Origin: Pristiophorus japonicus
Taxonomy: Eukaryota
Direction: 5' to 3'
Assembly (NCBI RefSeq): GCF_044704955.1
Contig: NW_027254368.1
Location: 372,001 to 436,000, forward strand
Length of the DNA: 64,000 bases
In this document: piece after piece, positions 21,229 to 51,945 of the stretch
Layout of the letters: each line of letters begins with the position of its first letter
Position numbering within the stretch: the first letter of the stretch is position 1
Notes under the pieces: model-generated
What the model was told of the DNA's origin: nothing
What the model saw: the letters and a program-made list of their open reading frames with translations, nothing else
Databases searched by the model: none
Translations under genes and position numbers: made by a program

Positions 21229-22173
21229 GATATTAGAAAAGGAGGATTTGCAGACGGGAAACTCCAACCAATCATATCGAGATCTGACAGAGTCACTCGA
21301 TTCACCTGTATATCATCGGCCTTTGAATGTGGAAGGAGAAACATTTGTCTGTTCTGTCTGTGGGAAAAGATTTTCAACATTAGTGTGACTGGTAAAGCAC
21401 CGAGACACACACACCCGAGTGAGAGTGTTCCAGTGCACTGACTGTGGAAAGAGCTTTAACCAGTTACACAGCCTGAAAAAACATCGCACTATTCACAGCG
21501 GGGAGAAACCGTACACGTGCTCTGTGTGTGGTTGAGGCTTCAACTGATCATCCAACCTGGAGAGACACAAGGACACACACACCATGGAGAAACCGTGGAA
21601 ATGTGGGGATTGTGGGAAGGATTCAATTGTCCCTCTGAGCTGGAAACTCATCGCTGCAGTCACAACGGAGAGAGGCTGTTCACCTGCCTCGTGTGTGGGA
21701 AAGGATTCACTTATTCATCCAGCCTGCTGGTAAATGAGCGAATTCACATTGGGGAGAGGCCGTCCACCTGCCCCGTGTGTGAGAAGGGCTTCACTCAGTC
21801 ATCCAACCTGCGGACACACCAACTCACTCACACTGGGGAGAGGCCATTCATCTATTCCGAGTGTAGGAAGGGATTCACTTGTTTATCCAACCTGCTGAGA
21901 CACCAACGCATTCACACTGGGGAGAGGCCGTTCATCTGCTCTGAATGTGGGAAGGGTTTCACTCGATCAACCCATCTGCTGACACACCAGCGAATTCACA
22001 CTGGGGAGAGGCCGTTCACCTGCTCCGTGTGTGGGAAGGGATTCACTCAATTATCCATCCTGCTGATACACCAACGCATTCACACTGGGGAGAGGGCATT
22101 CACCTGCTCTGAGTGTGGGAAGGGGTTCACTCAGTCATCCAACCTGCTGAGACACCAGCGACTTCACAAATGA
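21229..22173 (+). pseudogene. C2H2 zinc-finger gene, probably pseudogenised (7 fingers plus degenerate leader fingers)
   Basis: Acceptor ttctctag|G at 21228/9. The ATG at 21584 ([12 protein letters not shown]) is out of frame with the TGERPF array owing to a 1-nt deletion near 21618. Fingers 2 and 4 have lost zinc ligands. Ends HQRLHK-stop. Confidence 0.8.
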
Positions 22174-35700: not shown

Positions 35701-35741
35701 AGCAAAGCTCCCTTCAGATCTGTGCCTGACTGAACAAGATG

Positions 35742-36108
<367 letters not shown>

Positions 36109-37034
36109 AACTCCACGCTGTCCTGACCGAACAAACCCCAAACACAACGGCTCTTTTAAGAGCCATCCACAACATCATTGAAAGAGCTGCACAAACCCTT
36201 TATACTGAATTTACTGTAATTATTTCCCGAACAAGTGTGTGTGAGAACCTTTGCAGTACTAGTTATAGATTCAGTTTTGAATTCTCAAGCAGCTTCGCTG
36301 TCTGGTTCGACCTTGGCGTCGCTGGAATTTCCCGCAGTGAGTAAACTCCAAACACTGTCCCTGGTCGCATTCCCTTTGCTCTCAGCCCCGTTCATTCACA
36401 GCGCCTGCTGACAAAGGACTTATTTTGGGGGGCGGGGAAACTCCGATTTCAGTCATACATTCTCACTCAAGCCCTTTTCACTTTTTTTTTTATTCCGTTG
36501 CGGCTCAGTCCGTTATTAACCTGAGACTTCCCTCAGTGTAATAACCCAGAACGGGAGCAGTTTGAACACACTATCTCTCTTCACAGAAGAACGCCCAGTT
36601 CTGGTCTCACTTCCACAGCAGTTTCTGTGAAAAGAAGTTCACTTTTACAAAGATGAGCTGGAATGTGTCCCATTACAGAATCAATGGGGACTGAGTCCCG
36701 CCCGTTACAGACAGTTTGAAACTGAAGCCGAATGTAATCCTGATTGTAGCAGCCTGGAATTTGCAAGGGAAATATGGAATAAGATAAAAGGAAAGTGTTT
36801 TGAAGTATTTGCTAATGGTGAAGTTACTAGTATAATTCACAATTTTAACAATTATTGGCGGGATTTTTTAATTTAAAAAATCGTTAGCTTCTGACTGTTG
36901 AGAACCAGTAATTTCCGCCCTCCTTTCATTGGTGGACTAAGCAGGCTGTGATTGGTCAGCGGAAACGACCAATGAAATTCACTACAGAATGACCAATTAC
37001 AACTTCACTCCCTGAATCCCTCCAGAAGCTATAA

Positions 37035-37478
<444 letters not shown>

Positions 37479-37914
37479 AGCGGACAGATTTAATCTAATA
37501 ACCCAAAGGCTCTTTTCAGAGCCACCCACAGTATCTGTGAAAGGCTGCTTACTGTCTGAATGGAGACTTTGAGGTAATGTACCGATAAATTGGCCTATTT
37601 CAGACCTGTATGCGGGAGTTTTCAGTTATCTGTCTCTGCATTACGGTTCTCTACTCACACAAACGCTCTTCTAGTTAGCAGCGAATAATTGAACTACAGT
37701 TGTTAAAGACTCAAAAATTGTATAAATACCGCAACCGGTTCCCTAAATATTTTTTAGTCTGTCAATGAAAGCTGTATGAAGAGAGTCGGCGGTTATTAAA
37801 AGGGCCTAGTTTAATTCTGGTCTGGTTTGAGAGTTTGAATGCTGGTTCTGTTCTCGGGAGCTCCGGCCGTTTCCGGGCTGTGTATTTCTTTCCTGAGCCG
37901 GTCAGTTCAGACCG

Positions 37915-41193: not shown

Positions 41194-41796
41194 ACGGCAT
41201 ATTTCAGATGAAGGTAATACAGAAACAGCTAATGTTGTTACAGCAGTGACTGATAAGAAAGGTGTTGAATTAAACGGTGAGCGGAAGGACAGTGAGGGTC
41301 TCTTGCCCTCAAAGAAGGATTCCCAGGTCCTGATCAGAAGTGACCCTCAGGCAATCTCGGTGATAAACCGGTTAATGTCTCTCGAACATGTAGAAATCTA
41401 GATCGACAGTGACTTTGCTGTTCAGATTATTGAATATATATATATATATAGGAAAACACGTGAATGAACCTTCCTCACAAGACCGTCCGTCAGTAACCAT
41501 TTTTGCCTGAGAGCAGAATAGAAACATAAAGAACAGAGTATAAATCGGGAGGGGATGTAATTGATGACTTTGAATTTGAGATTGTGGCGAGCAATAAATT
41601 TGATTGGTCTCTTTAAACACCCAATCAGAGAGATACAGAACAATAGAAATTGACAACGCAGCCAACGAACCAATCACAGTCATTGCCTTCACCCATCCCT
41701 CATTCGCATCGGGCTGTGGGCGGAGTGTGGGGCTGCCTATATAATGCGAGCTCCGAGCTGAGTTTCCTTCATAATTGTGCCTGACTGAACAAGACG

Positions 41797-42389
41797 GTGT
41801 CTGTCACTTCTCGGCCTTTTCGCTAAGATCATGCGTAACTGACCTGACAGGGGAGTAACCATGACCCCAAAGTGGTTCTCCCTGGATCAGGAAGGTGGTT
41901 CTCCTATGCTTTTTGGAAATAGGAGGTGGGTGGGATGGCTTGACCCATCCACCTCCACGGAGGTGTGTGGGGGACCTGACCCATCCACCTCCATGGCACG
42001 AACCTGGTATTGCAGTACTTCCAGGAACGGTGCAGTGGCTCTAGGCCTTTTGGCTAAGAGCATTGGCGCAGAGTGATCCTTGACTGGTGCAGGGTGACCT
42101 CTGGCGTTTGTGACTTGACAAAGAATTGGAAACGATTGGCTACGAATTTATAAAAAAAAAAAAAAATCCACCTCCACGGAGGTGTGTGGGGGGCCTGACC
42201 CATCCACCTCCATGGCACGAACCTGGTATTGCAGTACTTCCAGGAACGGTGCAGTGGCTCTCGGCCTTTTGGCTAAGAGCATTGGCGCAGAGTGATCCTT
42301 GATGTGTGCTAGGTGACCTCTGGCGTTTGTGATTTGACAAAGAATTGGAAAGATTGGCAACGAAAAATTAAAAAAATAGAAAAAAAAAC
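41797..42389 (+). mobile_element. U2/U1 snRNA-derived chimeric retroposon (candidate SINEU-like), two units
   Basis: U2 5' end at 41803-41831; U1 5' end at 41836-41885; U2 Sm region/SLIII/SLIV at 41909-42034; second U2 SLI at 42038-42061; poly(A) at 42152-42166; second partial unit to an A-rich tail; TSD CAAGACG at 41790-41796 and 42390-42396. Confidence 0.85.
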
Positions 42390-42396
42390 CAAGACG

Positions 42397-42771
42397 ATGC
42401 CTGAGGAAAAGAAACAAATTGCCAAGAAAGGCGCCAAGAAAGTAATCAAGAAAACACCACCGAAGGGCGGCAAGAAGCGCAGAAAGTCGAGGAAGGAGAG
42501 TTACTCCATCTACATCTACAAAGTGATGAAGCAGGTTCACCCCGACACCGGCATCTCCTCCAAGGCCATGGGCATCATGAACTCGTTTGTGAACGATATT
42601 TTCGAGCGCATCGCGGATGAGGCTTCCCGCCTGGCCCATTACAACAAGCGCTGCACCATCAGCTCCCGGGAGATCCAGACCGCCGTGCGCCTGCTGCTGC
42701 CCGGGGAGCTGGCCAAGCACCCCGTGTCGGAAGGGACAAAGGCGGTGACCAAGTACACCAGCTCCAAGTAA
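42397..42771 (+). CDS. H2B: Histone H2B, open ORF (124 aa) with 5'UTR disrupted by the insertion
   Basis: MPEEKKQ...KYTSSK; stem-loop at 42812-42827; non-canonical residues (IADEA, KRCTI, KHPVS). Confidence 0.88.
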
Positions 42772-43593
42772 AACTCCATGCTGTCCTGACAGAACAAACC
42801 CCAAACACAACGGCTCTTTTAAGAGCCACCCACAACATCGTTGAAAGAGCTGCACAAACGCGTCATCCTTTAAACTCAATTTACTGTAGTTATTGCCTGA
42901 GCAAATGTGTTTGACAACCTTTAAAGATCCAGCTGTAGATTTAGATTTGAATTCTCAGATAAGCGGTTTTACTGTCCAGTTCAACCTGAGCTTCGCTGAT
43001 GAATTTCCCTCCCAGTAAACTACACACACTGTCCCTGGTCGCCTGCCGACGAATTATGATCTTGTTTTAGGGGTTGAGACTCAGACTTTAGTCACCTCAT
43101 TCTCTCTCTTTATAGTTTAAAATAAAATTGTAGTTCGGGGTCAATCTGCTTATTAACCGAGACTCCGTGTGTAACAAGCCAGAATGGGAGTTCTTCCAGA
43201 GACCAGAACGGGGGCAGTTTGAACACTCTGTCCCTCTTTTCTCACAGAAGGACTCCCAGTTCTAGTCTCACTCCCGCCTGTGCGGAGGATCGATCACCAT
43301 CTGTGATTCCCAAATTGTACAAAGACTGAGCTGGAATGTGTCCCGTTACGGAAAATTCCCGCCCATTACAGACTGTTTGAAACTGAACCCGAATTTAATC
43401 CTGATTGTAACATCCTGGAATTTGCAAGGTAATATAGAATAAGACAGAAGGAATTAAAACTCTTTGACTAATGATGAATTTATTAATATAATCCGCACTT
43501 GTAAAAATTATTGGCGGGCTTTTTGAAATTGAAAATTCGTCAAAGATCGGACTGTTAACAATAATTTTCACCCTCTTTTCATTGGCGGACTAA

Positions 43594-51243: not shown

Positions 51244-51945
51244 TCACTTGTGAAGTCGCTGGTGTCTCAGCAGGGTGGATGACTGAGTGAATCCCTTCCC
51301 ACACACTGAGCAGGTGAACGGCCTCTCCCCAGTGTGAACTCGCTGGTGTGTCAGCAGTGTGGATGATTGAGTGAATCCGTTCCCACATTCAGAGCAGGTG
51401 AACGGCCTCTCCCCAGTGTGAACTCGCTGGTGTCTCAGCAGGGTGGATGACTGAGTGAATCCTTTCCCACACTCTGAGCAGGCGAACGGCCTCTCCCCAG
51501 TGTGAACTCGCTGGTGTTTCAGTAGGTTGGATTGCTCAGTGAATCGCTTCCCACACTGAAAGCAGGTGAACGGTCTCTCCCCAGTGTGAACACGTTGGTG
51601 TTTCAGCAGGTCGGATGATGCAGTGAATCCCTTCCCACACTCAGAGCAGGTGAATGGCCTCTCCCCAGTGTGAATTCGCTGGTGCGTCAGCAGGCTGGAT
51701 GACTCAGTGAATGCCTTCCCACACTCAGAGCAGGTGAAAGGCCTCTCCCCAGTGTGAACTCGCCGGTGTGTCAGCAAGTTGGATGACTGAGTGAATCCCT
51801 TCCCACACTCAGAGCAGGTGAACGGCCTCTCCCCAGTGTGACAGCGTCGATGCATTTCCAGCTCAGATGGTGATCTGAATACCTTCCCACAGTCATCACA
51901 TTTCCACGGTTTCTCTGTGGTGCAGGTATCCTTGTGACTATCCAT
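51244..51945 (-). CDS. C2H2 zinc-finger protein, 8 intact fingers, no KRAB seen (233 aa from the ATG at 51945)
   Basis: Open [19 protein letters not shown]... with TGERPF linkers and all Cys/His ligands intact; upstream acceptor near 52282; CpG promoter at ~52860-53270. Confidence 0.85.

Follow-up and report, generated by a model that had tools for sequence, protein, structure and literature searches.

The window (the whole stretch of 64,000 nucleotides that was analyzed) carries at 41803–42150 one copy of an A-tailed retroposon that is a mosaic of the small nuclear RNAs (snRNAs) U2 and U1; the copy measures 348 bp plus its poly-A, and its parts follow one another in the order U2-U1-U1-U2-U2-tail. 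A second unit stands directly behind it, and the two together are flanked by a single 7-bp target-site duplication (TSD), the histone H2B paralog near 35741 representing the empty site. The features are as follows:

41790–41796 (+): left TSD, 7 bp, followed by about six extra bases; the same seven bases recur at 42390–42396
41803–41837 (+): U2 nucleotides (nt) 1–35, the head, with stem-loop I (SLI); BLAST match to host U2, Rfam U2 score of 50.4 bits
41838–41886 (+): U1 nt 3–52, bearing T6>G and G12>A; the SL1 stem is intact and the U1-70K loop has been lost
41885–41904 (+): duplicated U1 nt 28–47, which pairs back on the U1 5′ end
41909–41915 (+): Sm site of U2 origin; U5-G retained, preceding A now C
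41922–41956 (+): straightened U2 SLIII, a 13-bp hairpin with a hypervariable loop
41959–41992 (+): tandem duplicate of SLIII, 12 pairs; missing from some copies
41996–42035 (+): U2 SLIV, loop invariant across subfamilies
42038–42062 (+): second U2 5′ piece, nt 7–29; SLI longer by 5 pairs
42063–42166 (+): structured tail of about 88 nt, then poly-A; an expansion of the short tail that in family D (described below) starts at U2 nt 38/39
42166–42389 (+): second unit, truncated at the 5′ end, from a different subfamily and with an A-rich tail of its own
42390–42396 (+): right TSD, abutting the H2B ATG
42397–42771 (+): histone H2B reading frame, open; histone stem-loop at 42807–42852

The H2B frame has D74, C86, and P109 at positions occupied in solved H2B by G, S, and A, respectively, and, interrupted as it is, it may be decaying; its promoter, with CCAAT and TATA boxes, is parted from the ATG by about 600 structured bases that contain upstream ATGs (41670–42852). 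A small histone cluster is present in the window, with a second H2B that appears frameshifted and an H2A-like gene (35741–36189 and 37093–37547), each with a histone stem-loop. Elsewhere in the window, 84-bp tandem arrays lie on opposite strands at 21656–22168 and 51249–51841, presumably resembling C2H2 zinc-finger exons, and a short stretch of the minus strand at about 1265–1381 matches the 3′ end of the Keno-like LINE described below at 76%. Rfam matches to prion-pseudoknot, miRNA, and pRNA models stayed below threshold.

An earlier note, made from these letters alone, had proposed that the snRNA hairpins of the element are kept while its splice-recognition motifs are altered. The second half of that description is borne out, since nt 6 of U1 has changed from T to G (41841), the U2 branch-point hexamer (nt 33–38) is lost through a cut after nt 35 at the U2/U1 junction, and the A ahead of the U5 tract of the Sm site has become C (41909), whereas all 10 U1 and 7 U2 loci displayed from the same genome are canonical at these motifs. 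The changes thus belong to the element itself, and the possibility that the host genes already carry the variants is rejected on the strength of these loci. The names U1-70K loop, branch-point hexamer, and Sm site follow the relevant part of PMC8457000 and the Rfam alignments.

The hairpins call for a more qualified statement. The one at 41922–41956 has 13 pairs including one G-U, just as described, and the 5-bp extension of the second SLI (42038–42061) does pair; SLIII, however, is remodelled rather than kept, a continuous straight stem having replaced the bulge and internal loop of the host, and its repeat is present but not identical, with a T-C mismatch and 12 pairs. In U1 SL1 the stem pairs and equals that of the host, but the loop, the U1-70K site, is destroyed, and in SLIV, which we take to be the U2B''/U2A' site of U2, the stem pairs but the outer part has lost two pairs. 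Absent from that account was the first U2 SLI, which is broken by a change at 41821; this change and another at 41806, both in the U2 head, are private to the window copy. That account likewise stopped at 42061, short of the element's end at 42150, and did not recognize a retroposon with a candidate partner LINE. Taken as a whole, the element strand has a predicted fold of -141 kcal/mol (z -4.2), matched by none of 100 shuffles, and internal T runs are present in it.

A functional U1 or U2 variant gene was considered and rejected for this locus, where the upstream sequence is the H2B promoter, the hexamer is cut, SLII is absent, and poly-A and TSD are present. It is likewise unlikely that the copy serves as a source under the H2B promoter, the nearest sampled full-length copy being 1.5% different and the 41821 change occurring in none of 15 aligned heads; the window copy is probably a dead end.

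The retroposon family and the U2 arrays

Two marker patterns gave 5,373 and 5,829 exact matches, with none for the reversed controls, and the best 40 copies are 96–100% identical. Exact TSDs of 7–28 bp flank 95 of 168 copies (those with placeable ends out of 178 unique units), against 0–6 in 20 shuffled-flank controls. By their heads, the copies are divided into subfamilies A1, A2, A3, B0, B, and C, of which B is the youngest by nearest-neighbor distance (0.2% vs. 0.8–1.4%, in a sample partly picked for exact B tails). More than one tail is found at 17 of 60 loci, newer copies often sit at the 5′ end of older ones, and some copies (L008, L024) have received fresh U2 5′ pieces. Independent, often tandem insertions in one common flanking repeat (L065, L077, L080, L083, L141, L153, L259) mark a second preferred target.

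The sister family D, with at least 326 copies by exact matching, is a U2-only SINE that combines nearly the whole U2, minus 10 nt of SLIIa, with a second U2 head and with a tail that is short; in the oldest-looking copy (L262), the second head extends to nt 38 and the tail begins there, and among the sampled loci this old tail was matched in SINE contexts only.

In U2 arrays on several contigs, poly-A is joined to U2 nt 39, and upstream of the joint stands the SINE, family D, or a LINE of 5.7 kb that has a 534-aa ORF1 (zinc-knuckle) and a 1147-aa ORF2 (endonuclease, reverse transcriptase, and zf-RVT). The protein matches of this LINE are named TX1 or unnamed, and it shares with Keno the features that were compared, namely an apurinic-type endonuclease with reverse transcriptase, and insertion before U2 nt 39. 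The array stretches examined hold 18 promoter-fused SINE-B units, 13 LINE units, and about 196 intact U2, although a handful of insertions may underlie these units, and a single array may recur on unplaced contigs; in the SINE-B units, the head joins the U2 upstream sequence at +1. One variant, marked by two private changes, was counted 16 times in arrays and twice as a dispersed A-tailed copy, once with a TSD. An array source would be consistent with this without being proven by it, as both sets may stem from a common unseen source.

Both the SINE and the Tx1 LINE thus have U2 nt 39 as a target, and 2 of 30 D copies are split by an A-type SINE at this same nucleotide. Comparison with one full LINE revealed no common 3′ tail, so that the partnership of SINE and LINE rests on the shared site. 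Most copies of either family are dispersed; the LINE family gave 2,103 matches, and 0 of 30 lay in U2.

Further observations concern the targets. Two types of host U2 gene (L031, L051), with different promoters and SLIV stems, have both been invaded, and the 3′ ends of the SINE and of family D resemble the L031 type. In the U2 array at C19:69.62–69.73 Mb (L195, L196, L320–L327), 16 of 17 promoter units contain LINE or SINE, including LINE-into-LINE tandems at +39. A further Tx1 subfamily, older and distinct in its 3′ end, is likewise inserted before U2 nt 39 on C9 (L332, L333), and the 3′ flank of L208 shows a Tx1 copy and then diverged U1-like sequence, possibly a U1-derived element or a U1 target.

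Substitutions in stems and loops

The earlier note had invoked selection at the RNA level for structure or for binding of snRNP proteins, and had named a random distribution of substitutions over stems and loops as the contrary outcome. Substitutions were scored over 201 columns (41922–42122, 120 of them paired) in 181 copies, leaving out 16 alleles found in two or three copies. Stem-breaking changes made up only 1 of 37 substitutions common to at least four copies, as against 28 of 78 private ones (Fisher p = 5e-5, a generous value, as adjacent loop changes are not independent; counted by hand there are about 20–27 events, of which again only one breaks a stem). Exact motifs had guided part of the sampling; the positional sample alone gave 1 of 36 shared vs. 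22 of 65 private (p = 2e-4). Private substitutions hit unpaired columns as often as expected (34 of 78, for 81 of 201 columns), with no loop bias, whereas 30 of the 37 shared ones lie there. Selection for structure is supported by this test; the inherited changes likely spare the hairpins because the source copies were selected as folded RNA.

The loops themselves behave differently. Those of three hairpins vary freely, whereas that of SLIV shows eight private variants and no shared one in the 181 copies, about half of which had been picked on that very loop; among the first 100 copies chosen by a different motif, 82 have it exactly, and the mismatches inspected are scattered or CpG-type changes. 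The suggestion of snRNP-protein binding is hence favored by the SLIV loop, but not by that of U1-70K, which is gone.

In the head, the helices that persist over 15 haplotypes are U2 SLI, the inner U1 stem, and the outer helix formed by U1 nt 7–12 with the duplicated U1 piece, the last being retained in all 15. A covariation check of this alignment with RNAalifold found both-sides change at none of the 17 consensus pairs; the head structure is maintained by invariance and indels, and in single folds the head hairpin is predicted to lengthen from A1 to B and C. A tail stem records a double substitution, from A-T (L274) through G-T (L162, L201) to G-C in the window; covariation counts from the tail alignment were excluded, family D being registered there against the second half of the A tail.

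The Sm tract, the splicing motifs, and competing explanations

Internal 5′ truncations are strongly clustered, 41 of 52 beginning in 41912–41931, just 3′ of the Sm U-tract, in a hotspot of 20 out of about 175 possible bases that is seen with several tail types. None of 10 positional copies with the B tail stops at the hotspot, as against 35 of 83 others (p = 0.012), and in a set picked for B, 2 of 30 do; of the copies with the B loop, 215 of 285 reach through the U-tract, the other 70, without an exact upstream match, being only partly classified. In subfamily B, the U-tract is predicted to be folded into a 5-bp hairpin; the SLIII stem is alike in all subfamilies, yet B copies rarely stop at the hotspot. 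Given this accumulation of reverse-transcript ends immediately 3′ of it in the other copies, the U-tract probably still binds a protein in A-type RNA, although its A is missing, and there are hints that a bound Sm ring blocks reverse transcription there. The hotspot may also have arisen through 5′-to-3′ exonuclease decay halting at the hairpin or through cDNA snap-back, and the contrast with B, which is confounded with subfamily age, may reflect an age effect.

The reading that we favor, with a probability of roughly 0.65 for the joint claim and on the strength of genomic sequence, is that the window holds a dispersed member of a young retroposon family of U2/U1 origin, whose hairpins would be spared via selection on the source RNA, and which would be copied by a Keno-like Tx1 LINE and transcribed from sister copies behind U2 promoters. 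In this scheme, the U2 promoter would give rise to a capped RNA, LINE proteins would copy it, and only well-folded source RNAs would leave offspring; the altered splice motifs would be subfamily traits resulting from chimeric junctions and from a growing head hairpin predicted to bury them; and the Sm U-tract would be protein-bound in A-type RNAs, whereas B would fold it away and be mostly read through. An array transcript should continue into the rest of U2, yet the copies end at poly-A. A tentative and rather doubtful extension would make the RNA a counterfeit snRNP: transcribed from the U2 promoter, it would undergo snRNP assembly, with Sm ring, SLIV proteins, and nuclear return, while its U1 and U2 recognition ends are buried; the Sm ring would block the LINE reverse transcriptase, the hotspot being its genomic footprint, and the youngest subfamily would have escaped by folding the Sm site away. 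If the hotspot is indeed an Sm footprint, genomic copies record an RNA-bound protein in the germ line.

The earlier note had further suggested that the motif changes avoid interference with splicing, a proposal that does not hold family-wide. Subfamily C has U2 nt 1–38 intact (6 of 53 full-length positional copies), family D retains the branch-point hexamer almost throughout (28 of 30 copies), and the Sm U-tract is preceded by an A in B (36 of 37 copies) and C (8 of 8), though never in the 47 A1 copies; as C and D keep motifs lost here, avoidance of splicing is probably not the main reason for the changes. In its strong form, the proposal holds that the motif changes were selected because transcripts from the U2 promoter would poison splicing if their U1 or U2 recognition ends were functional, so that each lineage mutates or masks these ends. 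It would be in line with human variant snRNAs, which, according to the relevant part of PMC8457000, can enter spliceosomes and may stall them. Several features hint at such masking or mutation: the Keno-like LINE is independently altered at U2 nt 34 in 12 of 13 promoter-fused heads, a long predicted hairpin would bury the hexamer within the U2 nt 1–38 that subfamily C regained, T6>G of U1 lies within a 2 × 2 loop where T could pair and is restored in none of 15 heads, and family D is without 10 nt of SLIIa. Nevertheless, C and D multiplied with the hexamer intact, B and C carry the Sm-site A, each motif change amounts to only one or two events, and predicted masking is weak evidence, since real U2 also mis-folds as naked RNA. 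SLIIa is, moreover, missing from all A, B, and C heads, and a U2 without it could hardly function as U2, so that these heads are hardly able to act in this capacity. We regard the strong form as distinctly unlikely.

An account without selection, in which the motifs disappeared by accident where templates were switched in a few masters and the hairpins were perfected by mutational bias, such as quasi-palindrome correction, agrees with the precise cut of the hexamer at the U2/U1 junction, with the small number of master copies, and with the addition of fresh U2 5′ pieces, which parallels SINEU-2. It would leave unexplained why private substitutions, which include copying errors, have no loop bias while shared ones do, and why loops vary freely in three hairpins but not in SLIV, and it is considered highly improbable. 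Still more remote is escape from the target site, according to which heads were altered around nt 33–39 to keep the Keno endonuclease from severing the element from the promoter that it had borrowed: the LINE, A, B, and C heads are all unlike U2 at the nick site, family D keeps this site and is interrupted there by the LINE as well as by A-type SINEs, and none of 168 dispersed A, B, and C copies starts at the nick point, but in the C19 array the LINE has entered its own altered head at +39 five times and a B head once (possibly in fewer events). Altered heads are thus not immune, and target escape fails.

Relation to known snRNA-derived elements

Keno, of the Tx1 clade, and Utopia are U2-targeting LINEs, and the relevant part of PMC4640811 places the Keno site at nt 39, where Utopia is also found. 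The present element resembles Keno in its insertion ahead of U2 nt 39 and in a candidate partner LINE with an apurinic-type endonuclease (PMC4640811), but the SINE is non-coding, has no 3′ end in common with the LINE, and has mostly dispersed copies; a non-autonomous Keno derivative was rejected on this ground, the 3′ end not being shared with the one full LINE compared. With variant and pseudogene snRNAs, as the part of PMC8457000 on these describes them, it shares altered 5′-splice-site, branch-point, U1-70K, and Sm motifs; it differs from them in that a mosaic has been amplified as a unit from masters and has no promoter of its own at this locus.

The closest parallel is provided by SINEU-1, -2, and -3 of crocodilians (Kojima 2015, PMC4494074). 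The portion of that paper drawn on here describes short, A-tailed elements with U1- or U2-derived heads, repeated 5′ additions (in SINEU-2, U2 5′ pieces added to copies), and partial duplications, as well as tandem insertions around a TSD, internal oligo-T, and no tail shared with a LINE, the last stated for SINEU-1; all of these recur in the present family. Mobilization is ascribed there to Tx1 through shared targets, and the same portion reports no SINEU outside crocodilians, names Mariner-N4 as a target, and leaves transcription open (PMC4494074). Our literature search, with Repbase, Dfam, and the SINEU supplements outside its scope, found no published report of snRNA-headed SINEs outside crocodilians. 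The present family has a U1/U2-derived 5′ head, less than 500 bp with a 3′ poly-A, TSDs, and a target preference in common with a Tx1 LINE, and it is a multi-copy family descended from masters with a common structure rather than a set of independent retrocopies; in the sequence features compared, it would thus appear to work like SINEU as a kind, a likeness of features and not a claim of descent from the crocodilian elements. It departs from them in its copies in U2 genes at +1, in its very young age, in the order U2-U1-U1-U2-U2-tail, and in a structure-sparing evolution that can be measured. The contributions of the present analysis are the comparison of shared and private substitutions in stems, the subfamilies and sister family that speak against splicing avoidance, and the hotspot linked to the Sm site. 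In addition, the subfamilies amount to a natural mutagenesis of U1 and U2 parts that reveals which stems and loops are indispensable to a retroposon RNA, and the transcription of SINEU, left open so far, becomes a testable question with the concrete U2-promoter source loci, the intact candidate LINE, and the young subfamilies of this genome.
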